A stretch of DNA of 64,000 nt from Candidatus Parcubacteria bacterium (GTDB taxonomy: Bacteria; Patescibacteriota; Minisyncoccia; Phycocordibacterales; Zambryskibacteraceae). Made by a program: the position numbers and the translations under genes. The notes under the pieces are model-generated. The model made no database searches and was not told where the DNA came from. It saw only the letters and a list, made by a program, of their open reading frames with translations. Below, one piece after another: positions 1,326 through 28,101 of the stretch (position 1 is the first letter of the stretch; each line of letters opens with the position of its first letter). The stretch lies in the NCBI GenBank assembly GCA_019661785.1, contig JAIFWP010000001.1, forward strand, positions 11,545-75,544, in the 5' to 3' direction.

Positions 1326-3947
1326 ATGGTCATCTACGTAACAAAGCGCGACGGCACCAAAATGCCTTGGAATGCCGACTATATCAACCGCTCCATCGAG
1401 CGAGAGACCAAGGGTCTGCCTGACCCGATATCGAAGGTCATCCAGATAGCGAACGACACCCGCCTCACTGTCTACGATGGCATCACGACAGACGCCATGG
1501 ACCAGGCGACTATCAACGCGGCAATACAAAACATCAAAGATGATCCTGATTTCGATAAGGTTGCTACACGCCTCTTCCTCAAGACTATATATAAGAAGGT
1601 TCTTGGCTGGTACGCTACCGACGACAGAGCCGAGCTTGAAGTAAGCCACCGAAACGGGTTTATAAAGTATGTAGAGGAGGGAGTGGCTGGCGGCCGCTTG
1701 CATCCAAACATGAAGGAGAAGTTCGACCTCGAACGCATCGCTGATGCTCTCAGGCTTGAACGCGACGACCTCTTCCTCTACTCTGGCGTCGACGGACTCA
1801 TAAACCGCTACGGCATCAAGGACTCAGAGCAGAGGCCTCTTGAGACTCCGCAGTACATCTTCATGCGCATAGCCATGGGCCTTTCCTACAATGAGAAAAA
1901 TCCTACAGAGTGGGCCATTCGCTTCTACGAGAAGATGTCTAAGCATGAGTACATAGCTGGCGGCTCGACTAACCTCGGTGCAGGCACAGTGCGCTCAGCG
2001 CTCTCGAACTGCTTCCTCCTAGAAATCCACGACAACATGGAGCACATCGCGAAGTCTGTCTCAGATGTGATGCTCCTCTCCAAGGGTTCTGGCGGTCTCG
2101 GCGCCTCAGTGACCAAGCTCCGCGCTGCAGGCTCGCCTCTGAAGTCGAATTTCGGCGGCGCCTCTACTGGACCAGTGACCTTCGCCAAGGTTATCGACAC
2201 CGCCATCCGCGCTATACAGAGAGGAGGCAAGAAGAAGGGCGCTCTCTGCTTCTACATGGAGAACTGGCACCTCGATTTCCCTGACTTCCTCGACTGGAAG
2301 CACAATGCCGGAGACGACTACCTCCGCATGCGTACGGCGAACACCGCGGCCTTCATCTCAGATGAGTTCATGAAGAGGGTTAAGGCCGGCGAGGACTGGT
2401 ATCTCTTTGACCCAGCAGAGACAGGTGACCTTAACGAGATATACGGCAAAGTCTTCTCTAAGCGCTACAACGACTATGTGGAGATGGCTGAGAGAGGCGA
2501 GATGAGGCAGTTCAAGAAGATGCCTGCCAAGGAGCTCTGGAGGAAGATGCTCGTAGCTCTCCAGACCACCTCGCACCCTTGGATAACCTGGAAGGATCCT
2601 ATAAACCTCCGCGCGCTGAACAACAACACCGGCACTATACATATGTCGAACCTGTGCACGGAGATATGCCTCCCTCAGGACAAAGACAACATCGCTGTCT
2701 GCAACCTCGCATCACTTAACCTCGCCGCTCACGTCTCAGAGAAGCAGGTTAACTGGCAGCGTTTAGAGGAGTCGGTCCGCTTGGCTGTCCGCCAGCTCGA
2801 CAACCTTATAGATATTAATAAGCTCTCAGTGCCTGAGGCAGAGAGAAGCGACAAGGAGAATCGCGCAGTCGGCCTCGGCGTCATGGGTCTCGCAGATGTC
2901 TTCGAACGACTAGGACTCGCTTACGACTCAGAGCATGCATACAACTTTGCTGACCGCATTTTCGAGTTCGTCTCGTACATGGCCATTGACGAGTCTGCTA
3001 GCCTCGCTCGCGAGAGAGGCAGCTACAAGAACTTCGACGGCTCGCGTTGGTCTAAGGGTATGGTTCCTATCGACACTCTCGACCTCCTTGAGGAGAGGAG
3101 AGGGGTTAAGCTCACTGTCGACAAGACCTCGCACCACAAAGGCCTCGACTGGAATATCCTCCGAGAGAAGGTGAAGGGAGGTATCAGGAACGCCACTCTC
3201 ATGGCTGTCGCTCCGAACGCGAACATCGGCCTCGTCGTGGGCACAGTGCCGGGCATCGACGCGCGCTTCTCGCAAGTGTTTTCCCGCAACAAGATTTCTG
3301 GAAAGTATCTCGACATCAACCACAACCTCGTCCGCGATCTTAAGAACATGGACTTGTGGGAGAAGGTCAAAGAGCGCATCATCTCTCTCCAGGGCGACAT
3401 CTCAACTATCGAGGAAATACCAGAGCATGTGAGGAAGATTTACAAGACTTCCTTCACCACTTCTCCTTATGCTTATGTGGAGGTGGCTGCCAGAGCGCAG
3501 AAGTGGGTTGACCAAGCTCTCTCGCGCAACATGTACCTAGAGACCCGCGACATCGACGAGACTATGAACATCTACGAGGCAGCGTGGGAGAAGGGCGTAA
3601 AGACCACTTACTACTTGCACATGAAGCCTCGACACACGGCCGAGCAGTCGACTGTGGCAGTGAACAAGGCTCATGCTATGGGCAAGAAGGGCTTCGGCGC
3701 TCTTAGTGTGAAGCCAGCTGAGCCGACTGTGAGCGAGCCTGTTGTGGCCGAGGCAGCAGAGCCTGCCCCAGCTCCCGCTGCGGTAGTGCGCGAGCCCGCC
3801 CGCCTCGCAAGCGAGAGCGTTGCGGACAGGCCAGTACGTGTCGAGCGCGTTGAGAGTGAGCCAGTAGTCGTGGTAAAGTCGAGCGGTCTCAAGGTCCACA
3901 TGCCCGAGAATCCAGCCGATGCCAATATTTGTGACGATTGCCAATAA
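1326..3947 (+). CDS. nrdA: Ribonucleotide reductase class I large subunit with C-terminal low-complexity extension ending CDDCQ
   Basis: ATP-cone-like N-terminus (VTKRDGTKMPWNADYINRSIE). Active-site motif NLCTEI. C-terminal Pro/Ala/Glu-rich tail ending ...ICDDCQ*. Confidence 0.9.
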   Translation: MVIYVTKRDGTKMPWNADYINRSIERETKGLPDPISKVIQIANDTRLTVYDGITTDAMDQATINAAIQNIKDDPDFDKVATRLFLKTIYKKVLGWYATDDRAELEVSHRNGFIKYVEEGVAGGRLHPNMKEKFDLERIADALRLERDDLFLYSGVDGLINRYGIKDSEQRPLETPQYIFMRIAMGLSYNEKNPTEWAIRFYEKMSKHEYIAGGSTNLGAGTVRSALSNCFLLEIHDNMEHIAKSVSDVMLLSKGSGGLGASVTKLRAAGSPLKSNFGGASTGPVTFAKVIDTAIRAIQRGGKKKGALCFYMENWHLDFPDFLDWKHNAGDDYLRMRTANTAAFISDEFMKRVKAGEDWYLFDPAETGDLNEIYGKVFSKRYNDYVEMAERGEMRQFKKMPAKELWRKMLVALQTTSHPWITWKDPINLRALNNNTGTIHMSNLCTEICLPQDKDNIAVCNLASLNLAAHVSEKQVNWQRLEESVRLAVRQLDNLIDINKLSVPEAERSDKENRAVGLGVMGLADVFERLGLAYDSEHAYNFADRIFEFVSYMAIDESASLARERGSYKNFDGSRWSKGMVPIDTLDLLEERRGVKLTVDKTSHHKGLDWNILREKVKGGIRNATLMAVAPNANIGLVVGTVPGIDARFSQVFSRNKISGKYLDINHNLVRDLKNMDLWEKVKERIISLQGDISTIEEIPEHVRKIYKTSFTTSPYAYVEVAARAQKWVDQALSRNMYLETRDIDETMNIYEAAWEKGVKTTYYLHMKPRHTAEQSTVAVNKAHAMGKKGFGALSVKPAEPTVSEPVVAEAAEPAPAPAAVVREPARLASESVADRPVRVERVESEPVVVVKSSGLKVHMPENPADANICDDCQ

Positions 3948-5057: not shown

Positions 5058-6026
5058 ATGACAATACGAGTAGCAATCAACGGTTTCGGCCGTATCGGCA
5101 GGGCGTTTTATAAATTGGCAAAAGAGAATCCAGAGCTCACGGTCGTCGCAGTGAACGACTTAGCCGACAAGGCCAATGTCGAGTATCTCTTGAAGTTCGA
5201 CACCGTCTACGGACAGTGGAAGGGCAAGTTTGATGCGCAGTATGTAAGCGAGGCAGACCCAACTAAGCTCCCATGGAAGGATTTGAATATTGATGTCGTG
5301 GTCGAGTCTACCGGCCGCTTCACTAAGGGCGGAGCAGAGGGGCACATCACAGCCGGAGCGAAGCGCGTAGTCATCACTGCGCCAGTTACGGAGGGCGCCG
5401 AGACAGTGTTAATGGGTATCAATGAGGAGAAGCTAGCTACATGCACCATATCCTCAAACGCATCCTGCACGACTAACGCAGCCTCGCCCGTGCTCGCTAT
5501 ACTCGATGAGGCCATAGGCGTAGAGAAGGCCATCCTCAACACTGTACACTCGTACACAGCCTCGCAGGGCATAGTCGATGGTCCAAACAAGAAGGATTTC
5601 CGCGAGGGACGCGCCGCCGCGCAGAATATCGTACCTTCATCTACCGGTGCAGCCATTGCAGTGTCCAAGGCCCTCACACAGCTCGAAGGCAAATTTGACG
5701 GTATATCCATCCGCGTACCGACGGTCATAGGTTCCATTGCTGATATCACATTCATCTCTAAGCGGCCTACGACTGTTGAAGAGGTCAACAAGATAATGAC
5801 CGACGCCTCGCATACTGATAAATGGAAGAAGATATTCGAAGTAACGAGCGAGCCGATAGTCTCCTCCGACGTCCGCGATGCCGCGCATGCGTCTATAGCA
5901 GATTTGAACTTCACCCGAGTAGTCGGCGGCAATTTGGTGAAGGTCCTCGCCTGGTACGACAACGAGATGGGGTACACCCACACCCTTGTGGATCATGTTA
6001 TTAAACTCGGTAAAAGCATTATATGA
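5058..6026 (+). CDS. gap: Glyceraldehyde-3-phosphate dehydrogenase
   Basis: INGFGRIGR NAD-binding motif and catalytic SNASCTTN motif. 322 aa. Confidence 0.95.
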   Translation: MTIRVAINGFGRIGRAFYKLAKENPELTVVAVNDLADKANVEYLLKFDTVYGQWKGKFDAQYVSEADPTKLPWKDLNIDVVVESTGRFTKGGAEGHITAGAKRVVITAPVTEGAETVLMGINEEKLATCTISSNASCTTNAASPVLAILDEAIGVEKAILNTVHSYTASQGIVDGPNKKDFREGRAAAQNIVPSSTGAAIAVSKALTQLEGKFDGISIRVPTVIGSIADITFISKRPTTVEEVNKIMTDASHTDKWKKIFEVTSEPIVSSDVRDAAHASIADLNFTRVVGGNLVKVLAWYDNEMGYTHTLVDHVIKLGKSII

Positions 6027-6053
6027 AAGAACAAGGAACTATCTGGAATTAGT

Positions 6054-6503
6054 ATGAAAATATTTATTGGCTCAGATCATCGAGGCTTTGAGCTTAAGAG
6101 TATGCTCAAGTTCTATCTTGAGGCGGCAGGCTATGAAGTCATAGACAAAGGTGCTCACGAGTACAATGAGTCTGACGACTATCCAGACTTCATCATCCCA
6201 GTAGCCGAGGCGGTGACGGGCGACGCAGAAGCCAAGGGCATCATCATAGGCAAGTCAGGAGAGGGGGAGGCGATATGCGCTAATAAGGTGAGGGGCATTA
6301 GGGCAGTGGTCTACTATGGACACGAGCCAGAGCTTCTAAGACTCACTCGCAAGGACAACGATGCTAATGTGCTCTCTCTGGCATCAGGCTTCTTCCTTTC
6401 TAACGAGGATGTGAAGAGCGCGGTCAAGATGTGGCTCGAGACCCCATTTACGAACGATGAGAGGCATGTGAGGAGGCTCGCTAAGATCGACCAAATAAAA
6501 TAA
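6054..6503 (+). CDS. rpiB: Ribose-5-phosphate isomerase B (RpiB/LacAB family)
   Basis: MKIFIGSDHRGFELK..., ICANKVRGIRA. 149 aa. Confidence 0.88.
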   Translation: MKIFIGSDHRGFELKSMLKFYLEAAGYEVIDKGAHEYNESDDYPDFIIPVAEAVTGDAEAKGIIIGKSGEGEAICANKVRGIRAVVYYGHEPELLRLTRKDNDANVLSLASGFFLSNEDVKSAVKMWLETPFTNDERHVRRLAKIDQIK

Positions 6504-6510
6504 CAGACTC

Positions 6511-7068
6511 ATGGCTGACATTATCCCGGCAGTATTGGCCAAGAGTGCTGAGGAGATGCGCGAGAAGCTCGCCGCGATACCGAGTGAGGTACAAATGGTC
6601 CACATAGACGTGCTTGAGGACGATGTGTGCGCCGACTTCTCTAAGCCTTTCGAGGCGCATCTCATGGTTTCTGACCCGCTGCCCATTATGGAGCGCTGGA
6701 TAAAGAGGGGAGCCAAGAGGATCATCGTGCACAAACTCTCAAGAGAGGTACTCGAATACAAAAGGCAGGTCGAGATAGGGCTTGGAGTCGAGATGCAGGT
6801 GCCTATTGAGGAAATCTTGCCGCTCTCGCGTGATGTATCCTTCGTACAGCTTATGTCTATAGCGGAGATGGGAGAGCAGGGGCATCCGTTGGATGAGAGA
6901 ATATTTGATAGAATAAAGGAGTTAAGGGAGGTCTATCCGGATACGGTCATAAGCGTCGACGGTGGAGTGAATGCATCTAACTTCGAAAGGTTGCGAGATG
7001 CAAAGGTAGACAGACTCGTAGTGGGTAGCGGCTTCCAAGAACTATGGACATCACAGATGAAAAAGTAA
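6511..7068 (+). CDS. rpe: Ribulose-phosphate 3-epimerase-like protein (compact, 185 aa)
   Basis: Conserved HIDVLED, HLMV, LMSIAEMGEQG, VDGGV and VVGSGF blocks of the RPE TIM barrel, but shorter than canonical Rpe. Confidence 0.7.
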   Translation: MADIIPAVLAKSAEEMREKLAAIPSEVQMVHIDVLEDDVCADFSKPFEAHLMVSDPLPIMERWIKRGAKRIIVHKLSREVLEYKRQVEIGLGVEMQVPIEEILPLSRDVSFVQLMSIAEMGEQGHPLDERIFDRIKELREVYPDTVISVDGGVNASNFERLRDAKVDRLVVGSGFQELWTSQMKK

Positions 7069-7907
7069 TTGAGTTAGAGGAGAAGGCCAACCAGATACGC
7101 CTTTCTATCATTGAGATGCTCCTTGAGGCCAAGAGTGGGCACACTGCCGGGCCGCTTGGCATGGCGGATATTTTCACCACTCTCTTCTTCCATACGATAA
7201 GACATAACCCGAAGAAGCCTGATTGGCCCGAACGGGACAGGCTCGTACTCTCTAATGGCCACATTTGCCCCGTCTATTACTCGACACTAGCTCATGCCGG
7301 ATACATCCCGCTCGCAGAACTTAAGACTCTGCGCAAATTTGGCTCGCGCTTGCAGGGCCATCCGCACAGAGACTTCTTATCCATACTTGAGACCTCCTCC
7401 GGTCCGCTTGGCTCGGGCCTCTCCCAGGCTGTTGGTATGGCTCTTGCTGACCGCATGGATGCCAAGGAGGACAAGAGGCGTATATATAGCCTCCTCTCAG
7501 ACGGCGAGCATGATGAGGGGCAGCTCTGGGAGGCAGCTATGCTCGCAGGGAAGAACAAGTTAAGGAACATCACTGCAGTCGTTGACCGCAATAACATCCA
7601 GATAGACGGCTTCACCGAGGACATCATGCCGCTCGAGTCTTTGTCTGAAAGATGGAAGGCCTGGAATTGGCATGTGATAGAGATAGATGGTCACAATATA
7701 AGAGAGATTGTAGACGCCTTCGAGAAGGCCAAGGCTATATATGAGAAGCCGACGGTGATTATTGCGCACACTATCCCGGGCAAAGGGGTTAAAGAATTCG
7801 AGCGCGACTATCGCTGGCACGGCAAGCCGCCAAACGTCGAGGAGGGCAAAATGGCCATTGCCGAACTGCGCACTCTTGGAGGGAAAATCAAATCCGAACA
7901 CCAATAA
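7044..7907 (+). CDS. Transketolase, N-terminal (TPP-binding) subunit
   Basis: HTAGPLGMADIF...SNGH..., GSLGQGLS TPP motif. Split transketolase arrangement. Confidence 0.9.
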   Translation: MDITDEKVIELEEKANQIRLSIIEMLLEAKSGHTAGPLGMADIFTTLFFHTIRHNPKKPDWPERDRLVLSNGHICPVYYSTLAHAGYIPLAELKTLRKFGSRLQGHPHRDFLSILETSSGPLGSGLSQAVGMALADRMDAKEDKRRIYSLLSDGEHDEGQLWEAAMLAGKNKLRNITAVVDRNNIQIDGFTEDIMPLESLSERWKAWNWHVIEIDGHNIREIVDAFEKAKAIYEKPTVIIAHTIPGKGVKEFERDYRWHGKPPNVEEGKMAIAELRTLGGKIKSEHQ

Positions 7908-19326: not shown

Positions 19327-20040
19327 CTAGTTACTAGTCGGTGTCGAGGTGGCGGCGGTGGAGGAGGCCTTGAGGGCGTTTAGGCGCTCTTGCTCAACCT
19401 TGAGGCGGGCGAGGGCTGGGATGGACTTCTCGAGCTCTGAGAGGGGTCTGAAGCCGTAGTAGGGGTCGCCGTTAACGACGAGTACTGGCAAGGTCGGACC
19501 GAGCTTATATATGGCCCTTAAGGTGTGCATAGCCTCAAGGTCGAGGTTGTAGTCGAAGGAGTATATGCGTAGGTCAGGGAACTCGTCATGGAGGGCGGTG
19601 AGCACGTAGCCCATCTTCTGGCAGTCGTCACAGTCGCCAGCATTGGAGTAGAAGTAGAGTATGAAGGTTGGGTGCGTGCCGCACTTCTCTGTCACTCTTT
19701 TCATTAGCAGATAATCGCGGATTTCTAGGAGCGAGTACTGGCTTTTGAGCAGGATGACGTTCTCGTTGTCGGTGCCTCTTTGCGCCTCCGCTACGGAGAG
19801 CTTGTCGGCCAGGTCGCCAAGTTCCTTGGATAGGGTGATGGTCTTGCCCACATCCTTGCAGGAGGTCTCCTCTAGGAGCTGGGACTGCGTCTCTGAGGCC
19901 AAGATGTCAAAGGAGAGCTGGTCCTCGATTCCCTGTATGGTAGCGAGCTTCTTCTGCGAGAAGTAGTTGGATACGAAAAGGGCTGTGCCAAAGATAATGG
20001 CCGTGATAAGAAAAGCGAAGAGGTATTTGCGGTTGTCCAT
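19327..20040 (-). CDS. Membrane-anchored thioredoxin-fold protein with CDDC active-site motif
   Basis: N-terminal TM and a helical linker. The thioredoxin fold reads FILYFYSNAGDCDDCQ...TLPVLVVNGDPYYG, with the cis-Pro in the expected place. Confidence 0.55.
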   Translation of the reverse strand: MDNRKYLFAFLITAIIFGTALFVSNYFSQKKLATIQGIEDQLSFDILASETQSQLLEETSCKDVGKTITLSKELGDLADKLSVAEAQRGTDNENVILLKSQYSLLEIRDYLLMKRVTEKCGTHPTFILYFYSNAGDCDDCQKMGYVLTALHDEFPDLRIYSFDYNLDLEAMHTLRAIYKLGPTLPVLVVNGDPYYGFRPLSELEKSIPALARLKVEQERLNALKASSTAATSTPTSN

Positions 20041-20052
20041 GCGTGGCGGGGC

Positions 20053-21300
20053 CTATTTCCAGCTTATCTGCTTCCGCATGAGAGTACTATAAGTCGCCTT
20101 AGCAAGCCAGAGGGGAGGAAGGAAGATGTATAGAGCGAGGTAGTAGAACACATCCTTGCCCAGACGCACTCGACCCTCTGATATTTTGAGCGAGAAGAAG
20201 AGGAGGACTAGAGAGAGGGCCACAGCTGTCGAAGCGAGCCAGAACATGGTGCCGGTATCCATAGCAAACCAGTTAATGCTGAAGCTTGGCACATGAGGGT
20301 TGAAGCCGACTGCCTGGTACTTGAGCATCTGGTCGGGGATTTTTGCCACCATGCTCCAGACGAAGTTGCCCGCGGCGTATAAAGTGCTGAAGATAGAGAA
20401 GGTGGCCATGGGCAGGATGTAAACTCCTATGTGCCCATACTTCTTGTTGAAGTACATGTCGCGATAGTCGAAGGCATTGTTCAAGAATCCATAAGCCCAG
20501 CGCACTCGTTGCTTGTAGAGGCCTTTTAGCTTAGCTGGACCGATAGTGTATACAAAGGCGCTGTGGGAGTTGGCTATCTTGTAACCATGCTTCTGCATGC
20601 GGAGAGCCATCTCCATGTCCTCGGTGTGGTGAGCATGGCGATAGCCTCCAAGCTCGCTAAAGACCCTCGTGCGGAAGATGGAGAAAGGTCCAGGGGTGAC
20701 ATAGAGAGCCCCCATGGAGGCGAGTATTCGGCGCAGGAGGATGCCCCAGCTGTACTCTATCTTCTGCACATACTGGAGGACTGTCTTAGGCTCGTGGATT
20801 TTAATAGATGGGGTAACAGCCATGGTGTTCTCATCGTTGAAGTAGGGGACTATCTTCCTTAGAGCGGCGCTGTCGACGAAGGAGTCGGCATCGAGACAGC
20901 CCACAAGCTCGGTATCTACGATGGCGAGGCCGGCGTTAAGCGCGGCAAATTTGCTCCCCTCATTACGCTTCGAGAGTATTCTCACCTGAGGATGGTCTTT
21001 GAACTTCTGAAGCACTTTGAGTGTGCCGTCCGTAGAGCCGTCATCTACGAGGATGAGGGACAGGCTCTGGCTGGGGTAGTCGAGGTCAAGGAGGGATTTA
21101 ACGGTCTTCTCTACCGACCTCTCCTCGTTAAAAGAGGGCACAATGATAGAGACCGACGGGTAATGGCCGACCTCCTTTCCGTCGTGCTCCTTCTCGAACT
21201 TTATCTCCTCACGAATCTCAAAATAAGTGATGAGCAAAAGAATCTCGAAGAAGAGCGAGGCAAAAAGCGTAAAGTATAGGAAAAGACTAGAAATGGCCAT
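20053..21300 (-). CDS. Processive family-2 glycosyltransferase (PgaC/IcaA/NodC/HasA-like synthase)
   Basis: N- and C-terminal TM helices. GT-A core with VDDGSTDGT, DAD (CLDADSFVD) and the processive QRVRWAYG (QxxRW) motif. 415 aa. Confidence 0.85.
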   Translation of the reverse strand: MAISSLFLYFTLFASLFFEILLLITYFEIREEIKFEKEHDGKEVGHYPSVSIIVPSFNEERSVEKTVKSLLDLDYPSQSLSLILVDDGSTDGTLKVLQKFKDHPQVRILSKRNEGSKFAALNAGLAIVDTELVGCLDADSFVDSAALRKIVPYFNDENTMAVTPSIKIHEPKTVLQYVQKIEYSWGILLRRILASMGALYVTPGPFSIFRTRVFSELGGYRHAHHTEDMEMALRMQKHGYKIANSHSAFVYTIGPAKLKGLYKQRVRWAYGFLNNAFDYRDMYFNKKYGHIGVYILPMATFSIFSTLYAAGNFVWSMVAKIPDQMLKYQAVGFNPHVPSFSINWFAMDTGTMFWLASTAVALSLVLLFFSLKISEGRVRLGKDVFYYLALYIFLPPLWLAKATYSTLMRKQISWK

Positions 21301-21324: not shown

Positions 21325-22485
21325 ATGCCCGATTTGCAAAAAACGCATCATATATCCTTAGACGATGAGAAGGCCCTTATCCTTAGCCTCGACAAGCGCA
21401 CTGACGCCGAGAGCGCCCGCATGCGCCGCTACCTCGGCATGCCCGACCTCTCAAGGACGCATGGGAGCCCTATACATGAGATGGTTGAGCGAGTCTTAGC
21501 GAGGCCCGAGTTCAAAAACTTCGACATCATAGAGACTCCTGAGATTGTTCCTGCGGATATAAGCTTCGACCTTTTCGACTTTCCGGCTAATCATCCGGCT
21601 CGCAGCTCGTCCGACACGTATTATGTTACCGACAAGAACATTCTCCGTACGCACACAACGGTGATGTGGTACTACTACCTGCAGTTGCCTGAAGTACGTG
21701 AGCGGATGGCGCGCGGCGAGTCGGTGGGCAGCTTCTCTTTCGGCAAAGTATATAGAAAGGACGAGATAGACAGAAACCACATGAATGTCTTCCATCAGCT
21801 CGACGGGTGGTATCTCGCGCCAAAGGACAAAGAGCCGCTCGGCGAGGAAGAGCTCAAGGGAGTCCTCCTGTCTATTGCCAAAGCTGTCTTCGGCGAAGCG
21901 GTCATAAGCCGATTCAACCCAGATACCTTCCCCTACACCAACCATTCGCTTGAGATGGAGATAGATAAAAATGGCAAATGGGTCGAGGTTTTGGGAAGCG
22001 GGATAGTGAAGGATAGCGTATTAGAGAAGTTTGGCATTGATTCGACGAAGTGGAACGGCTGGGCCTTCGGCTTCGGGCTCGAGCGGCTGGCTATCATCTC
22101 AATGGAGCTTCCAGACATCCGACTCCTGTGGTCGGAGGACGAACGAGTGAAGAAGCAGCTTGTACTTGGGCAGAAATATAAGGAAGTATCTAAGTTCCCA
22201 CCCGTAGTACGCGATATTTCGTTTGTGGTGGATAATGCCTCCTTTGTCTTAAATGATTACTTTGACTCTATCCGCGAGATTGGAGGCGACCAAGTGGAGC
22301 AAGTCGAGCTCATCGATAAGTATGAGAATGCCGCTAAGTTCGGCGCAGACAAAACAAGCTACACCTTCCGCATTACCTATAGAGATCTCAACAAGACACT
22401 GACTAACTCTGAAGTTAACGACATGCATGCCAAGGTTGAGGAGGCTACGGCTAAGGAATTCGGCGGGGTAATACGTCTCTCGTAA
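21325..22485 (+). CDS. pheS: Phenylalanyl-tRNA synthetase alpha-type catalytic core fused to a C-terminal FDX-ACB (anticodon-binding) domain (monomeric mitochondrial-type PheRS architecture)
   Basis: Class II motifs NHPARSSSDTYYV, LRTHTT and GWAFGFGLERLAII. The C-terminal ~100 aa (VVRDISFVVD...TSYTFRITYRDLNKTLTNSEVN...) matches the FDX-ACB domain normally at the PheT C-terminus. No pheT adjacent. Confidence 0.85.
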   Translation: MPDLQKTHHISLDDEKALILSLDKRTDAESARMRRYLGMPDLSRTHGSPIHEMVERVLARPEFKNFDIIETPEIVPADISFDLFDFPANHPARSSSDTYYVTDKNILRTHTTVMWYYYLQLPEVRERMARGESVGSFSFGKVYRKDEIDRNHMNVFHQLDGWYLAPKDKEPLGEEELKGVLLSIAKAVFGEAVISRFNPDTFPYTNHSLEMEIDKNGKWVEVLGSGIVKDSVLEKFGIDSTKWNGWAFGFGLERLAIISMELPDIRLLWSEDERVKKQLVLGQKYKEVSKFPPVVRDISFVVDNASFVLNDYFDSIREIGGDQVEQVELIDKYENAAKFGADKTSYTFRITYRDLNKTLTNSEVNDMHAKVEEATAKEFGGVIRLS

Positions 22486-22486
22486 T

Positions 22487-23077
22487 ATGGCATGGATATA
22501 TAGAGTTGGTCTTCTGAAAAGCGATGTTGATGAGTCTTTGCTTAAAAAGTCTGAGCTCAAGTATGAGGAAGTGGAGGTGGAGACTGCTCTACGCGCGCAT
22601 ATAGATGAGACTTTAGGGAAGCCATATAAACTCCAGACATCTATGCGAGAGGATGCCCCAAACTTCTTCAGCTGTTCGTCCTTGCCGAGTTACCTATATG
22701 TTTTTGCCGGAGTGTTCATGCCGAGCCTCGTCATAGAGAAGTTTAATTTTACTAAGCCAGTTACTCGAGAGGAGCTAAGGTTTGGCGACTTCGTCTACTC
22801 CTTCAACGATGCAGATGTGGACAGGAAGTCGCCGAACCACATGGGCATATATATGGGTGATGGCAAAATCCTCCAAGCCGCAGGGTATTGGTATAAGGGG
22901 CAAGTGCTCATCGAGGATCTGGACAAGAGCCCTTCCTTCGAAAATATTGTAGGATATGGCAGAGTAGTAGATGACTTGAGCGAGAAGCGATATGTGGTCG
23001 AGATACCCGAGGACAGGCCCGACTTGCAAAATAAGAACAATTTGATAAAAGAGTTAGAAAAATATGGCCACCAATAA
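22487..23077 (+). CDS. NlpC/P60 family papain-like cysteine peptidase (no signal peptide)
   Basis: Catalytic Cys in FSCSSLPSYLY, His in NHMGIYMGDGKILQA. Starts 1 nt after the pheS stop. Confidence 0.8.
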   Translation: MAWIYRVGLLKSDVDESLLKKSELKYEEVEVETALRAHIDETLGKPYKLQTSMREDAPNFFSCSSLPSYLYVFAGVFMPSLVIEKFNFTKPVTREELRFGDFVYSFNDADVDRKSPNHMGIYMGDGKILQAAGYWYKGQVLIEDLDKSPSFENIVGYGRVVDDLSEKRYVVEIPEDRPDLQNKNNLIKELEKYGHQ

Positions 23078-23702
23078 GCCAGCCAGCAAAGATAGGCGAC
23101 AAAAGCCCGAGACCAAGGTCACGGTGAAGACCATTTTGCCTGTACCCTTTGTCTCGCAGTACGAGATAGGACGCGACTCCGACGGTCTCTCGCGCGCCTG
23201 CGGCGCCGCTTGCGTGAAGATGGTTCTCGACTACAGGGGCGGTGAGGCTCCCAACTTCCTTGCTCTCGTGCGCGAGGGTCAGACTATGCGTGGGGCGTAC
23301 ATCTCCGGTATCGGCTGGACTCATGCTGGACTTGCAGCACTCCTAAGGAACCACAACGTCGGTGCCTATGCCGAGGAGTTCCGCGCGGTTGATGTCGATG
23401 CCAAGAACAGGGAGTTCCTCCCATCGCACTTCGAGGCTGGACATATTGAGCGCGGTATACAAAAGATTGCAGGCAAGATTTTAGACTGGAAGCAGCCAGT
23501 CATCGTCTCAGGAGTGAAGAATTGGAAAGAGAAGGACAAATGGCACCTCATGGTGGTCACAGGCGTAGAGAAGGATGGAGACAGGATAGCCGGCTTTTTC
23601 TATCACGACCCAGACGACGAGGACAAAGATGGTCGAGACAACTTCGTAGACAAGGAAACCTTCCGCACCTACTGGCGCAAGTTTGCGATATTCGTGGACT
23701 AA
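23064..23702 (+). CDS. Stand-alone peptidase C39-like (papain-fold) domain protein
   Basis: Q(x13)CGAACVKMVLDYRG matches the C39 Q...CG.AC..M..Y.G block. His in WHLMVVTG, Asp in YHDPDD. No ABC transporter domain and no signal peptide. Confidence 0.7.
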   Translation: MATNKPASKDRRQKPETKVTVKTILPVPFVSQYEIGRDSDGLSRACGAACVKMVLDYRGGEAPNFLALVREGQTMRGAYISGIGWTHAGLAALLRNHNVGAYAEEFRAVDVDAKNREFLPSHFEAGHIERGIQKIAGKILDWKQPVIVSGVKNWKEKDKWHLMVVTGVEKDGDRIAGFFYHDPDDEDKDGRDNFVDKETFRTYWRKFAIFVD

Positions 23703-23737
23703 GGTAGAGTTAAGTCAGGCCTGAACCCGGAGGACGA

Positions 23738-23980
23738 ATGGACGGCATAACCGATCTTTCCCCCCGCGGTACACACACACGCACACATGTAGTCTACAAA
23801 GAGTTCAGATATGTGCCCGACACGGCCGGTACTGAAAGCCTTGTCGATAAAGCAGGAGAAGAGTCTGCTGCCGAAGTTGCAGAAGTCCCCGTGATTCCGG
23901 ACATCGAGGGCGAGAACCTGCCTTATTTTCAACTCATTCTCCTCGAGCTCCTTACCGACGAAACCCGCCTCGCATCCTGA
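23738..23980 (+). CDS. Possible small acidic protein (80 aa) or 3' UTR
   Basis: ORF lies between the C39 gene and a strong + strand terminator. Contains an (ac)n microsatellite. Coding status uncertain. Confidence 0.25.
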   Translation: MDGITDLSPRGTHTRTHVVYKEFRYVPDTAGTESLVDKAGEESAAEVAEVPVIPDIEGENLPYFQLILLELLTDETRLAS

Positions 23981-23985
23981 GGCGG
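23953..23985 (+). terminator. Strong rho-independent terminator
   Basis: aacccgcctc-gcatcct-gaggcgggtt perfect 10-bp stem then gtttt. Confidence 0.75.
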
Positions 23986-24019
23986 GTTGTTTTACTTATA
24001 AAAGAGAACCGCGCACTAG

Positions 24020-24673
24020 CTAGTGCGCGGTGGAGAGGCCCAATGCTCGGACAAAGAGCTTAATGACATCATCGACCTTGCCACTCATCACCAGGTCGAT
24101 ATGCTTGTCCTCCATACCGCATTCGCCGAGCTTTTGGAGGAAGAGCTCTTTGTGCTTGTCTGGTGGCGGGAGCGGGGTAGGCAGTGTGTCGGCGCCCTTC
24201 TCTTGGGCAGGAAGGCCGAGTATTTCCACCATCGTCTTTCTTGCTTCGGCCAGGGTCTGCTTTTTGTTGCCCATCTCTTCGATCAGGCAATAAGCAGCGT
24301 TGCTACCGGCGCTCTCTGTACTGAGGATGCAGATGAGGCCGAGGAGGAGATGTTCGGTGCCGACGTAGCTCATGCTGAGCCCTCGAGCCTCCGACATGGC
24401 CGACTCGAGCACTTTCTTGGCTTTGAAGGTATAGGGGAGATCCGGGCCCGCCTTCCCTTTGCCCTTTGACAACCTTTTCTCGATCTCTCTATTAAGCTTG
24501 TCGAGGTCGATATTGAGGCGGAGCAGGATCGTTGCGCCAACCCCTTCCCCCTCGCGCAGCAACCCGAGCAGGATGTGCTCAGGCCCGACGAACTCGTGAT
24601 GGAAACGCGCTGCTTCCTCGCGAGCCATTGAAAGGACCTTGCGTACTCGTTCGGTAAAGTTGTAGCCGTTCAT
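24020..24673 (-). CDS. Stand-alone Clp N-terminal domain protein (two Clp_N repeats)
   Basis: Repeat 1 FTERVRKVLSMAREEAARFHHEFVGPEHILLGLL. Repeat 2 YTFKAKKVLESAMSEARGLSMSYVGTEHLLLGL. No AAA+ module follows. Confidence 0.78.
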   Translation of the reverse strand: MNGYNFTERVRKVLSMAREEAARFHHEFVGPEHILLGLLREGEGVGATILLRLNIDLDKLNREIEKRLSKGKGKAGPDLPYTFKAKKVLESAMSEARGLSMSYVGTEHLLLGLICILSTESAGSNAAYCLIEEMGNKKQTLAEARKTMVEILGLPAQEKGADTLPTPLPPPDKHKELFLQKLGECGMEDKHIDLVMSGKVDDVIKLFVRALGLSTAH

Positions 24674-24752
24674 GGACCCCTCCTGGGGCAGCTGGATGTC
24701 TATTCCCACCCTATCATTTACCCCTAAAATTTGCTATAATTATGGGTACCAA

Positions 24753-26813
24753 ATGCCCGAAAAAGCCAAGCAAACAGGCCATAAATACGACGCCCAATCC
24801 ATCACCGTCCTTGAGGGTCTGGAACCTGTCCGCAAGAGACCCGGGATGTACATTGGTACGACGGGTCCCGACGGCCTCCATCACCTCATCTGGGAGATTT
24901 TTGACAACTCACGCGACGAGGCCATGGGCGGCTTTGCGAGCGACATTGAGGTGGCTCTTCTGCCAAGTAACCGCATCAGAGTAGTCGACAACGGCCGCGG
25001 CATACCAGTCGACACTCACAAGCAGACCAAGGTATCGGCTCTTGAGACTATCATGACTACGCTCCATGCCGGAGGTAAGTTCTCTGGCGAGGGCTACCAA
25101 GTCTCGGGCGGACTGCACGGTGTGGGCGCCTCGGTAGTGAATGCCCTCTCCACTTACTGCCGCGTTGACGTGCACAAGGACGGCGGTATCTACATGCAGG
25201 AGTACGCTATGGGCAAGCGCAAGGCCGCAGTGAAGAAGGTGGGTTCTACCAAACAGCAAGGCACAGTTGTGACCTTCCAGCCTGACCCATCCATATTCCC
25301 CGACACCAACTTCGACTTCAAAAAGGTTGTGAACCACTTGCGCCAGCAGGCTTACCTCGTTAAGGGCCTTCGCATCACTGTCATTGACGCCAGAGAAACT
25401 CCTAAGGTGGATGCAGAAGACGTCTTCTACGTCCGCGAGCTAGGACTTGAGGCACCAAGCATGGGCTTCTACTTCGAGGGCGGGCTCATGTCCTTGGTTA
25501 AGTTTGAGAACCAGCTCCAGAAGCCGGTACACAAAAATATCTTCTATGTGGAGAAAGCTGCCAATGGTAACGACTATGAGACTGTCGAGGTAGCGTTACA
25601 GTATGTCGACGACATCTCCTCGCGCATATTGCCCTTCGCCAACAACATCTACAATGCCGAGGGCGGCACGCATGTCACAGGCTTCAAGACCGCTCTCACC
25701 AGAACTTTAAACACATACGCCCGCAAAAATAATTTAGTGAAGGAGAGCGAGGACAACTTCACTGGTGAGGATGTGCTCGAGGGTCTTACGGCTGTCATCT
25801 CGGTCAAACTGCGTGAGATACAGTTCGAGGGTCAGACTAAGGGCAAGCTTGGCTCAGTAGAGGCTCAGGCTATGGTCACAACCATCTTCGGTGAGGCTTT
25901 CTCTGCCTTCCTTGAGGAGAACCCAGACGACGCTAGAGCCATGATAAACAAGGTGGTCCTCGCCCTTAAGGCCAGGAAGGCTGCTAAGGCTGCTAAGGAC
26001 TCTGTGCTGCGCAAGGGCGCTCTTGAGGGCATGACCCTGCCCGGCAAGCTCGCAGACTGCTCCTCGCGCTCAGCTGAGGAGTCTGAGCTCTTCATCGTAG
26101 AGGGAGACTCTGCCGGCGGTACGGCCAAGATGGGCCGCGACAGGCGCACTCAGGCTATCCTGCCTTTGCGCGGAAAGATTTTGAACATCGAACGTGCTCG
26201 TTTGGACCGTATGCTTGGGAGCGAGCAAATCAAGAACCTCGTTGTGGCTCTCGGTACAGCCATAGGAGACACCTTCGACCTCTCTAAACTCCGCTACCAT
26301 AAGATAATCATAGCTACGGATGCCGACGTCGACGGCGCGCACATACGCACGCTCCTCCTCACGCTCTTCTACCGACACTTCCGCCTAGTTATCGATGGGG
26401 GCTTTATATACATCGCGCAGCCGCCTCTCTACAAGATAAGGAAGGGTAAGGAAGTGCACTATGCGTACACAGACGCGGAGAAGAACAAGATTGTCGGAGC
26501 TGATATAAACGTCGAGGATACTATTGAGGAGAATGCCGAAATAAATACAGAGGATACCGAAGCAGAGGAAGAGGAGAACCCAAAGAAGAAGTCAGCTAAA
26601 GTCTCTATCCAGCGCTACAAAGGTCTGGGAGAAATGAACGCAGAGGAGCTCTGGGAGACGACCATGGACCCTAAGGTCCGCATATTGAAGCAAGTCACCG
26701 TGGAAGACGCTCGCGATGCCGACAAAGTCTTCGACATCCTCATGGGCACCGATGTCCCGTCCCGCAAATCCTTCATCCAGTCAAACGCAAAGAAAGCTAC
26801 GCTCGACGTTTAA
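24753..26813 (+). CDS. gyrB: DNA gyrase subunit B
   Basis: GHKL ATPase N-terminus (GLHHLIWEIFDNSRDEA), Toprim EGDSAGG, PLRGKILN, QRYKGLGEM. Extended -10 tgcTATAAT at 24732-24740. Confidence 0.92.
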   Translation: MPEKAKQTGHKYDAQSITVLEGLEPVRKRPGMYIGTTGPDGLHHLIWEIFDNSRDEAMGGFASDIEVALLPSNRIRVVDNGRGIPVDTHKQTKVSALETIMTTLHAGGKFSGEGYQVSGGLHGVGASVVNALSTYCRVDVHKDGGIYMQEYAMGKRKAAVKKVGSTKQQGTVVTFQPDPSIFPDTNFDFKKVVNHLRQQAYLVKGLRITVIDARETPKVDAEDVFYVRELGLEAPSMGFYFEGGLMSLVKFENQLQKPVHKNIFYVEKAANGNDYETVEVALQYVDDISSRILPFANNIYNAEGGTHVTGFKTALTRTLNTYARKNNLVKESEDNFTGEDVLEGLTAVISVKLREIQFEGQTKGKLGSVEAQAMVTTIFGEAFSAFLEENPDDARAMINKVVLALKARKAAKAAKDSVLRKGALEGMTLPGKLADCSSRSAEESELFIVEGDSAGGTAKMGRDRRTQAILPLRGKILNIERARLDRMLGSEQIKNLVVALGTAIGDTFDLSKLRYHKIIIATDADVDGAHIRTLLLTLFYRHFRLVIDGGFIYIAQPPLYKIRKGKEVHYAYTDAEKNKIVGADINVEDTIEENAEINTEDTEAEEEENPKKKSAKVSIQRYKGLGEMNAEELWETTMDPKVRILKQVTVEDARDADKVFDILMGTDVPSRKSFIQSNAKKATLDV

Positions 26814-28014
26814 TCTCTTCTCTTAGTTTTGAAATGAGTTCTTCGATTGAGAGGACTTCCTTAGTGCCGTTGCGACTTTCTACAGTGAGTTTCTGGTCAG
26901 CTACCTCCTTGTCGCCTATGACTATGGCGTAGGGGATTTTCTCGGTTTTCACATTGCGGACCTTCTTGCCCAAAGACTCGCTAGATTCATCGAGTTCGGC
27001 GCGGATGCCCTCGGCTTTTAACTTCTCTGTCACTGACTTTGCGTATTCAAAGTGAGCTTCGCCAATAGGGAGGACCTTCACCTGCACAGGAGCGAGCCAG
27101 AGAGGGAGGACTCCCTCAAGATGCTCAAGGACTACAGCCACGAAGCGTTCAATGGAGCCCATGATAGCGGAGTGGATCATGACTACGCGCTCCTTCTCAC
27201 CTTTTTCGTTCACGCAGGTGAGGTCGAAGCGCTCTGGGAGCTGCATGTCGAGCTGGATGGTAGCTACCTGCCACTCGCGGCCGGCGGCGTTCTTCGCTAC
27301 GAAGTCGAGCTTCGGTCCGTAGAGAGCGGCTTCGCCCGGTCCCTCGAAGAAGTCTGCTCCGCGCTCGGCAGCTATCTCACGCAACTCACTCTCGGCCTTG
27401 TCCCATATAGCTGGAGTGCCAAGGTACTTCTCTGGTGTTGCCGGGTCGCGGAAGGAGAGGCGCACTCGCAGGGTGAAGCCGAAGGCCTTGTAGAAGCTGT
27501 CTACGATATCCCATATCTTATTGAACTCGTCCTTAATCTGCGGAGTGCGGCAGAAGACGTGTGAGTCGTCCTGAGTGATAGAGAGCACGCGAGTAAGGCC
27601 GCCAAGCTCGCCGGACTGCTCGTCGCGGTAGACCATGGTCGTCTCGGCGTAGCGCTGAGGCATCTCGCGATAGCTGTGGGGCTTGCGGGCGAATATCTGT
27701 ATATGGTGAGGGCAGTTCATTGGCTTGAGCGCATACTCCTTGCCCTCGCGCGAAGTAAGCTTGAAGAGGTCATCAGCGAACTTCTCCCAGTGGCCGCTCG
27801 TCTCGTAGAGGTCTCGCTTGGTGATGTGAGGGATAGTGACGCGGTCGTAGTTGTGCTTGGAGCGGAGTTCCCAGACGAACTTGTCTAGCTCGCCGCGCAC
27901 TATTGTACCCTTAGGGGTCCAGAGGGGGAGTCCTGGGCCGACTAGCTCGGAGAAGGTGAAGAGGTCAAGCTCCTTGCCTAACCTGCGGTGGTCGTTGGGT
28001 TCCATTTCAGTCAT
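26797..28014 (-). CDS. thrS: Threonyl-tRNA synthetase, catalytic + anticodon-binding domains only (no TGS/editing N-domains)
   Basis: Begins at the ThrRS core motif DHRRLGKELDLF, has KPMNCPHH, class II motifs and a C-terminal anticodon-binding domain. The upstream ORF extension lacks any TGS/N2 homology. Confidence 0.85.
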   Translation of the reverse strand: MTEMEPNDHRRLGKELDLFTFSELVGPGLPLWTPKGTIVRGELDKFVWELRSKHNYDRVTIPHITKRDLYETSGHWEKFADDLFKLTSREGKEYALKPMNCPHHIQIFARKPHSYREMPQRYAETTMVYRDEQSGELGGLTRVLSITQDDSHVFCRTPQIKDEFNKIWDIVDSFYKAFGFTLRVRLSFRDPATPEKYLGTPAIWDKAESELREIAAERGADFFEGPGEAALYGPKLDFVAKNAAGREWQVATIQLDMQLPERFDLTCVNEKGEKERVVMIHSAIMGSIERFVAVVLEHLEGVLPLWLAPVQVKVLPIGEAHFEYAKSVTEKLKAEGIRAELDESSESLGKKVRNVKTEKIPYAIVIGDKEVADQKLTVESRNGTKEVLSIEELISKLREEIKRRA

Positions 28015-28101
28015 GGAAGAGATTGTAGCATTTTGACAATGAGGCTGGAAGGAGTATAAATATCCAAAGAAAGCATCCCTCAACCTTTTGCCGAGAGACT
28101 T

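Follow-up and report, generated by a model that had tools for sequence, protein, structure and literature searches.

Organization of the locus

The window analysed here is a stretch of 64,000 nucleotides (nt) from the Candidatus Parcubacteria contig JAIFWP010000001.1 (positions 11,545 to 75,544). Its plus strand carries at 21325-23702 three tightly packed genes, recognized in the list of open reading frames (ORFs) and in the sequence, that code for a phenylalanyl-tRNA synthetase (PheRS), a protein with an NlpC/P60 peptidase core (hereafter P60) and a Peptidase_C39_2 protein (hereafter C39_2). The P60 protein, 196 amino acids (aa) long, is very probably the B5 domain of a PheRS beta subunit (PheT) interrupted by the peptidase core, and the neighbouring synthetase is predicted to be a single-chain enzyme. 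The elements of this module are the following.

21325-22485, plus strand: single-chain PheRS gene, 386 aa, TAA stop at 22483-22485; predicted class II alpha core at aa 45-278 and FDX-ACB/B8 domain at aa 289-384
22487-23077, plus strand: P60 gene, 196 aa, ATG at 22487
22487-22582, plus strand: predicted B5 N-terminal half (aa 1-32), strand-helix-strand with B5 helix 1 deleted
22583-22981, plus strand: nested NlpC/P60 core (aa 33-165)
22673-22675, 22838-22840 and 22874-22876, plus strand: P60 catalytic positions Cys63, His118 and Gln130
22982-23077, plus strand: predicted B5 C-terminal half (aa 166-196), KRYVVEIPEDRPDLQNKNNLIKELEKYGHQ
23064-23702, plus strand: C39_2 gene, 212 aa
23157-23159, 23199-23201, 23544-23546 and 23607-23609, plus strand: C39_2 catalytic positions Gln32, Cys46, His161 and Asp182
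23962-23988, plus strand: intrinsic terminator hairpin, 11-bp stem, -19.8 kcal/mol, z -4.6

The P60 protein matches Pfam family PF00877 with 36 bits (cut-off 23; E 7e-9) and the C39_2 protein matches PF13529 with 30.9 bits (cut-off 24). A spacer of 1 nt separates the PheRS stop from the P60 start, and the 3' end of P60 overlaps the 5' end of C39_2 by 14 nt. The hairpin at 23962-23988 is followed by the U-rich tract UUGUUUUACUU and is predicted to end the PheRS-P60-C39_2 transcript in the window's genome. An earlier sequence-only reading of this DNA had described two tandem papain-fold cysteine hydrolases, NlpC/P60 then C39-like, packed with the PheRS gene into one transcriptional unit by these same junctions and followed by a strong terminator; all of this is borne out. 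Dozens of homologues with 32-100% identity keep the same gene order, so that the ORFs are real genes and not chance. These homologues carry the taxon labels Parcubacteria, Paceibacterota or Patescibacteria.

The P60 protein as a PheT B5 domain with an insert

The origin of the P60 protein can be read from the L020 locus, a relative that shares the gene neighbourhood and has in it a canonical 249-aa pheS and a 751-aa pheT. The Pfam order of the L020 PheT is B3_4 (100-278), NLPC_P60 (346-462), B5, CLM and FDX-ACB, and its B5 match covers only profile positions 33-67, at residues 475-509. Residues 4-196 of the window protein align inside this PheT with 36% identity (E 6e-29). The insertion point was set by P0267, a close PheT relative without insert that reads FGWKHECVTVDGIRYWSITPPFERLDLKIKEDVIEEVGR. 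The corresponding sequences are FGWEHACVT[~205 aa]WVVTVPHERLDLRIKEDLIEEIGR in the L020 PheT and ELKYEEVEVE[~133 aa]RYVVEIPEDRPDLQNKNNLIKELEK in the window protein. In direct comparison, the B5 C-terminal half (C-half) of the window protein corresponds to residues 445-470 of Escherichia coli PheT. We are confident, on the strength of these alignments and of the profile comparisons below, that the 196-aa protein is a PheRS beta-subunit B5 domain with P60 inserted in the loop between strand 2 and strand 3.

When the P60 core is spliced out, Pfam B5 becomes the best or near-best family of seven of eight free-standing homologues (E 8e-5 to 2.5e-3). Spliced homologues taken singly score 18-23 bits against Pfam B5, under its cut-off of 28.6, and the L020 PheT without its P60 core scores 68 bits. 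The hhalign comparison of the spliced tails of 63 sequences with a profile built from 18 canonical B5 domains has a probability of 97.9% and E 3.8e-13, with 53 columns aligned over both tails; the best P among 20 column-shuffled controls is 0.014. The AlphaFold2 model of the 196-aa protein (predicted local distance difference test score, pLDDT, 93.5) consists of strand-helix-strand, the P60 core and strand-helix, which is the B5 element order. The modelled elements of the N-terminal half are strand 5-10, helix 16-22 and strand 26-30.

Mean identity in the free protein is highest in the B5 C-half (59% versus 48% in the P60 core), which argues for a continuing role of this segment beyond tying the P60 ends. 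The acidic residues equivalent to D454, D460, E463 and E464 of E. coli PheT, which we take from their UniProt annotation to bind Mg2+ shared with the alpha subunit, are all four present in 26/26 nested forms; the window protein has D179, N185, K188 and E189 at these positions. The P60 protein is not an orphan wall-type hydrolase; its adjacency to pheS, noted in the sequence-only reading, is most probably one of descent, the nested domain being found also inside full-length PheT in sister lineages. At the L109 locus, on a 1.5-kb contig, the P60 gene (54-721) is called as 168 + 53 aa, reflecting a frameshift or a sequencing error.

The upstream single-chain PheRS

The gene upstream of P60 gives Pfam matches to tRNA-synt_2d (E 1e-52) and FDX-ACB (E 1.5e-22). 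Domains B1-B7 are absent from its product, and hence the B3/4 editing domain too. In NCBIfam the closest curated models, both missed at their cut-offs, are SrmL (NF051887, 'PheS-related mystery ligase'; 247.3 bits, cut-off 300) and pheS_mito (TIGR00469; 227.5 bits, cut-off 258.35). The gene sits where sister loci have pheS and pheT, and no further pheT-like sequence is found within the 64-kb window. Judged by its domain content, the product is a single-chain enzyme of mitochondrial type composed of the alpha core and B8. The earlier naming of this gene as pheS holds for the alpha core and falls short for the C-terminal FDX-ACB (B8) domain, which it missed and which marks the enzyme as single-chain.

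Distribution and direction of change

The distinct sequences comprise at least 26 nested forms, from lineages of Parcubacteria and the Candidate Phyla Radiation (CPR), and 21 free-standing forms. A protein search yields four more PheTs with nested P60 besides that of L020, and a metagenome scan, classified by tblastn, yields about 27 loci in which pheS precedes a pheT of 778-955 aa with P60 at the same place. Pfam confirms the nested architecture in L020 and in seven metagenome PheTs, two of these seven having also the B2 tRNA_bind domain. The nested PheT layout is (B1/B2)-B3/4-B5[P60]-B6/7-B8, encoded by a gene that comes after pheS and usually before gyrB. Nested P60 spans a deep divergence, with GyrB identity down to 57%. 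C39_2 lies downstream of pheT in ten nested loci, directly so in six (-40 to +32 nt). Where the downstream sequence is long enough, C39_2 stands between pheT and gyrB in about half of the nested loci. The B3/4 editing site is intact in nested PheTs, which have the equivalents of E. coli N254, H265, E334, T354 and A356. The idea that P60 substitutes for B3/4 editing in these proteins was therefore rejected.

In a neighbour-joining tree of GyrB, the loci with free-standing P60 and single-chain PheRS form one clade inside a paraphyletic set of nested loci. The nested form is thus ancestral and the window form derived. As reconstructed from these comparisons, the window carries a remodelled pheST operon in which the alpha core gained B8, domains B1, B3/4 (editing) and B6/7 were lost, and B5[P60] was kept. 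In the free-standing arrangement PheRS and P60 are adjoining or overlapping genes, with overlap in L001, L004 and L006.

The NlpC/P60 core and its allele classes

A profile search of the PDB with the P60 core retrieves 39 P60 chains, among them 7cfl with E 1.5e-20, and Foldseek superimposes the core on 7cfl with a template modelling (TM) score of 0.88. The best matches by sequence and by fold are all gamma-D-Glu-diamino-acid (DL-) endopeptidases. Cys63 occurs in all of 48 distinct P60-bearing sequences and His118 in 47, the last one having an alignment gap at this position. Position 130 is His in 36 of the 48, Gln in 8 and Asp in 2; the window has Gln. Nested PheT forms have Asp at position 62 and Gln at position 85 in 26/26, Arg at position 80 in 24/26, and His at position 130. 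They retain the DL-endopeptidase motifs D-C-S, P-R and D-Q and the third His. The window protein belongs to the allele class S62, S80, K85, Q130.

At least three P60 allele classes are found when the window is compared with L001-L024 and L043-L046, and they do not follow the GyrB tree. The window and L005 are 90% identical in GyrB, 79% in PheRS and 78% in C39_2, and only 49% in P60. Pairwise identities of PheRS and of P60 are uncorrelated with those of GyrB (rho 0.06-0.19), whereas those of C39_2 follow GyrB (rho 0.73). These comparisons suggest a mosaic or recombining PheRS-P60 segment. Defence systems and phage origin were considered as sources of the module and discarded, PADLOC giving no hits and PHROGs only generic tail-lysin P60 matches.

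The C39_2 protein

The C39_2 protein belongs to PF13529; its score to PF03412, the transporter-type Peptidase_C39 family, is 16.9 bits, under the cut-off of 22. Its signature residues are well conserved among 28 sequences (Cys46 28/28, His161 28/28, Gln32 27/28, Asp182 24/28). A C39_2 profile run against PDB sequences gives nothing meaningful. The AlphaFold2 model (pLDDT 90.5) leads in Foldseek to the C39 domains of ComA, LahT and PCAT1 and also to a CdiA-CT toxin, and it matches the phytochelatin-synthase-like protein Alr0975 over nearly its full length. The subfamily comprises 533 clusters at 50% identity, nearly all of stand-alone proteins of 170-210 aa without N-terminal extension. Its distant representatives were retrieved only on contigs of 0.7-1.7 kb.

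C39_2 lies directly 3' of the P60-bearing gene in nested and free forms alike, its start falling within -40 to +35 nt of that gene in most loci of both forms. Neither an ABC transporter nor a conserved small ORF is found in the window neighbourhood or in more than 50 related loci. The Q/C/H/D signature described earlier for the C39-like protein, and the lack of a transporter nearby, are thus both confirmed. L020 codes at 5506-6558, in a single 350-aa frame, for a C39_2 fused at its N-terminus to a MazF/PemK-like domain. The fusion occurs in one of 28 C39_2 loci and was rejected as a general feature. L020 has moreover, at 1431-3124, genes for a Kre9/dockerin-like protein and an NYN-domain RNase between pheS and pheT. 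In L009 the C39_2 position is occupied at 6610-7395 (minus strand) by a gene for a 261-aa leaderless VanY-type peptidase that converges on the B5[P60] gene and adjoins it.

Absence of leader sequences

In-frame stops lie 18 nt (P60) and 9 nt (C39_2) upstream of the starts, and the N-termini of both proteins lack a hydrophobic segment. A signal peptide is consequently impossible without a sequencing error, and an alternative upstream start is likewise ruled out by the stops. Leaders are absent from the aligned homologues of the two peptidases (0/13 and 0/21) and from wider sets of homologues, over 60 for P60 and over 150 for C39_2. A cytoplasmic location follows from the lack of leader sequences, in agreement with what had been presumed before. 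The accompanying statement that NlpC/P60 enzymes are normally extracytoplasmic has to be qualified, since there are cytoplasmic relatives of P60 such as YkfC and dipeptidyl-peptidase VI. The catalytic Cys/His pairs (Cys63/His118 and Cys46/His161) align with their families as the sequence-only reading had proposed to check, and it is likely, as judged from their sequences, that both hydrolases are cytoplasmic and catalytically competent.

The gene neighbourhood and the C39_2-gyrB interval

All relatives examined share the recurrent order rpsB-tsf ... GT2 (minus) / PheRS / P60 / C39_2 / gyrB / thrS (minus) / dnaE, where GT2 is a family 2 glycosyltransferase. C39_2 is missing from this order in L006, L008, L009 and L045, and L009 carries its PheRS gene on the opposite strand. 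In the window, the minus strand at 19327-21300 codes for the GT2 enzyme, which has membrane segments, and for a 237-aa protein that matches no family and has a hydrophobic segment at its N-terminus. Both genes are divergent from PheRS and are conserved in nearly all relatives. The threonyl-tRNA synthetase (ThrRS) gene at 26797-28083 (minus strand) codes for 428 aa in the window. Most clade members have a ThrRS of 409-416 aa with catalytic and anticodon domains only; those of L006 and L009 have 580 aa and retain the tRNA_SAD editing part. ThrRS without an editing domain is the second such synthetase near the editing-less PheRS.

Three further elements lie between C39_2 and gyrB.

23738-23980, plus strand: 80-aa acidic ORF, candidate coding sequence outside the conserved module
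24008-24031, minus strand: terminator-like hairpin of the convergent Clp_N-only gene
24020-24709, minus strand: Clp_N-only gene, 229 aa, two Clp_N repeats and no AAA+ module

The stop codon of the 80-aa ORF falls in the loop of the terminator hairpin at 23962-23988. This ORF has no family matches and no tblastn hits in 25 related loci, and its codon score of 0.195 is borderline, at the low edge of the real-gene range. In the closest relatives, L109 (C39_2 90% identical) and L110 (83% identical), gyrB starts 47 and 56 nt after C39_2 and the 80-aa ORF is absent. The window thus has a lineage-specific insertion of about 1 kb that holds the 80-aa ORF, two facing terminators and the Clp_N-only gene. 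The ORF was accordingly rejected as a conserved partner of the module. The Clp_N-only protein matches the phage family phrog_35667 (E 2e-26). The C39_2-gyrB interval (23703-24740 in the window) is a hot spot of insertion: L001-L003 have unrelated ORFs of 159-168 aa there, in some cases accompanied by a Clp_N gene, and nothing lies between the two genes in L109, L110 and L004.

Proposed function and alternative explanations

The explanation that we favour overall, with reasonable rather than strong confidence, is a cytoplasmic amidase nested in a B5 remnant, tethered to PheRS and helped by C39_2. The two B5 halves would keep the P60 fold in one piece, and they probably continue to dock P60 on the catalytic core of PheRS; the alpha/beta interface is where the conserved C-half of B5 lies in canonical PheRS. 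For the free B5[P60] protein we see even chances that it is still associated with PheRS. P60 could act as an amidase on gamma-D-glutamyl-type bonds in soluble peptides, a proposal made because the nested forms keep all canonical DL-endopeptidase motifs. Candidate substrates would be imported or recycled cell-wall stem peptides, salvaged in an auxotrophic episymbiont, and the co-transcribed C39_2 may cleave another bond of the same peptides. The replacement of C39_2 in L009 by a leaderless VanY-type stem-peptide peptidase counts for stem-peptide chemistry. A stem-peptide-type substrate for P60 is a tentative and somewhat doubtful assignment. The intracellular module cleaving gamma-glutamyl or isopeptide bonds that the sequence-only reading had suggested is possible and enters into the explanation favoured here.

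Several observations weigh against the tethered amidase. In the window allele three residues of the canonical P60 motifs (D before Cys; P-R; Q) and the third triad residue are replaced, so that its specificity may differ from that of DL-endopeptidases. Free forms keep the first and the last of the four acidic B5 residues and have mostly Asn and Lys at the other two positions, and with the loss of two residues of presumed Mg2+ role the old interface may be gone. Among relatives, P60 and PheRS identities are related with a rho of 0.12, giving no sign of partner co-evolution. The hydrolases are moreover not obligate partners, since about one in two nested loci lacks C39_2, as do L006, L008, L009 and L045. 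A salvage amidase would also have no obvious reason to be nested for so long in a tRNA synthetase, and the long-lived fusion argues for a role linked to tRNA or to PheRS.

In such a role P60, perhaps with C39_2, would act on aminoacyl- or peptidyl-tRNA or on another PheRS-bound ligand, as a deacylase of D-Phe- or mischarged tRNAPhe, as an LRAT-type NlpC/P60-like aminoacyl-transferase, or as a detoxifier of PheRS inhibitors. Domains added to or inserted in aminoacyl-tRNA synthetases usually serve tRNA binding or editing, and nesting of P60 in a synthetase subunit across a deep divergence would be better explained by a tRNA-directed function than by salvage. The same function would fit the retention of B5[P60] as the only remaining part of the beta subunit, with even the B3/4 editing domain lost, the abutting or overlapping PheRS and P60 genes, and the strong constraint on the B5 C-half. 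It would fit L020 as well, with its RNA-binding MazF/PemK-like domain on C39_2 and its NYN RNase gene in the operon. A precedent for a stand-alone PheT-domain protein acting as a trans-deacylase is CtdA, a B3/B4 relative (PMC12449066). However, the B3/4 editing site of nested PheTs is intact, motifs and fold make the P60 core a typical DL-endopeptidase, and the MazF fusion is confined to one of 28 loci. To our knowledge there is also no precedent for a papain-fold aminoacyl-tRNA hydrolase. We consider an action on tRNA or another PheRS-bound ligand rather unlikely. The narrower proposal that nested P60 is a synthetase-associated cysteine enzyme hydrolysing or transferring the aminoacyl or peptidyl group of tRNAPhe, with C39_2 downstream, is unlikely as well. 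If it were true, a tRNAPhe-directed P60 module would have been important enough to outlast the rest of the beta subunit, its editing domain included.

A different possibility is that both proteins are ordinary wall hydrolases exported without a Sec signal, through lysis, a non-classical route or delivery to a host cell, and that the link to PheRS is a neutral accident, brought about by domain insertion and a conserved gene order. The closest relatives of the P60 core outside the CPR, including P0286, are secreted wall hydrolases, and the P60 alleles are reshuffled between closely related loci, a pattern frequent in genes for surface or interaction proteins. The whole neighbourhood from rpsB-tsf to dnaE is syntenic, which makes adjacency alone weak evidence of shared function. 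Export of this kind is nevertheless very improbable, because a domain inside an essential cytoplasmic synthetase is not exportable on its own and no leader occurs in any of the P60 and C39_2 homologues surveyed. In addition, a scan of viral contigs, carried out for C39_2 only, finds no relative, and neither protein matches a defence-system model. The sequence-only reading had also raised leader-peptide processing by the C39-like enzyme, here of double-glycine leaders, or a toxin/immunity module formed by the pair with the 80-aa ORF. The fold likeness to the peptidase domains of ComA, LahT and PCAT1 and to the CdiA-CT toxin, and the position of a small acidic ORF directly downstream, speak for these roles. 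Both are scarcely credible in view of the PF03412 score below threshold, the absence of an ABC transporter and of a conserved small ORF from the related loci, the lack of PADLOC hits, and the 80-aa ORF itself, which has no homologue in 25 loci and lies in a 1-kb segment missing from the two closest relatives.

The P60 domain was kept across a broad CPR clade and then alone after its subunit was dismantled. This history points to a function selected independently of aminoacylation and physically tied to PheRS. Such nesting would link a cell-wall-type peptidase to an intracellular enzyme of translation in an extensive group of ultra-small CPR bacteria. The labels 'C40 family peptidase' and 'cell wall-associated hydrolase' now given to these genes are misleading. 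The upstream gene would provide a bacterial single-chain PheRS of mitochondrial architecture together with a step-wise route to it from the alpha-beta enzyme, which bears on the origin of mitochondrial PheRS. Full-text literature searches turned up no account of a synthetase subunit with a nested cysteine peptidase domain, of P60 in PheT or of such a bacterial single-chain PheRS. The nesting of P60 in a synthetase, as predicted here, thus appears to be new, inserted-domain synthetases and stand-alone synthetase-derived proteins being known kinds.

Comparison with known systems

The window P60 has the fold and the Cys-His-His/Gln triad of the NlpC/P60 (MEROPS C40) DL-endopeptidases such as Clostridioides difficile Acd24020 (7cfl), CwlO/LytE and MepS. 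Unlike the secreted members it has no signal peptide, lipobox, SH3b or LysM targeting domain, and it differs from the whole group by its predicted nesting in a tRNA-synthetase domain and by its S62, S80, K85, Q130 allele. The C39_2 protein shares the papain-like fold and the Gln/Cys/His/Asp residues with the C39 domains of the bacteriocin exporters ComA, PCAT1 and LahT and with Alr0975 (Foldseek E 8e-7 to 1e-4). The TM score to these proteins is about 0.5-0.6 when normalised by the query, and 0.75-0.79 for ComA domains when normalised by the shorter target. In contrast to the exporter domains, the window protein has no transporter or leader-peptide genes nearby, carries about 60 extra residues, falls in PF13529 rather than PF03412, and is part of a CPR-wide family of leaderless proteins of 170-210 aa.

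The likeness to PheT B5 (PF03484) lies in the strand-helix-strand ... strand-helix topology, in the signature V-x-(V/I)-P-x-x-R-x-D-(L/I) ... L-I-x-E, which the window protein keeps, and in its full-length homology to PheTs with the same insert. The window protein differs from B5 in being free-standing instead of lying within a PheT of about 800 aa, in the deletion of helix 1, in its interruption by an enzyme domain of about 130 aa and in the replacement of two of the four conserved acidic residues (N185, K188). Its synthetase neighbour has the alpha-core and FDX-ACB architecture of mitochondrial single-chain PheRS (TIGR00469) and of SrmL (NF051887). It is distinguished from both by its bacterial (CPR) origin and by scores under the two curated cut-offs, and from the mitochondrial enzymes also by the accompanying B5[P60] remnant, which these lack. 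As a piece of a synthetase turned into an independent gene beside its parent enzyme or instead of it, B5[P60] resembles AlaX, ProXp/YbaK and CtdA, the last a B3/B4-type canavanyl-tRNA deacylase (PMC12449066). Those proteins are editing domains, whereas the survivor here would be the non-catalytic B5 carrying a foreign peptidase domain.

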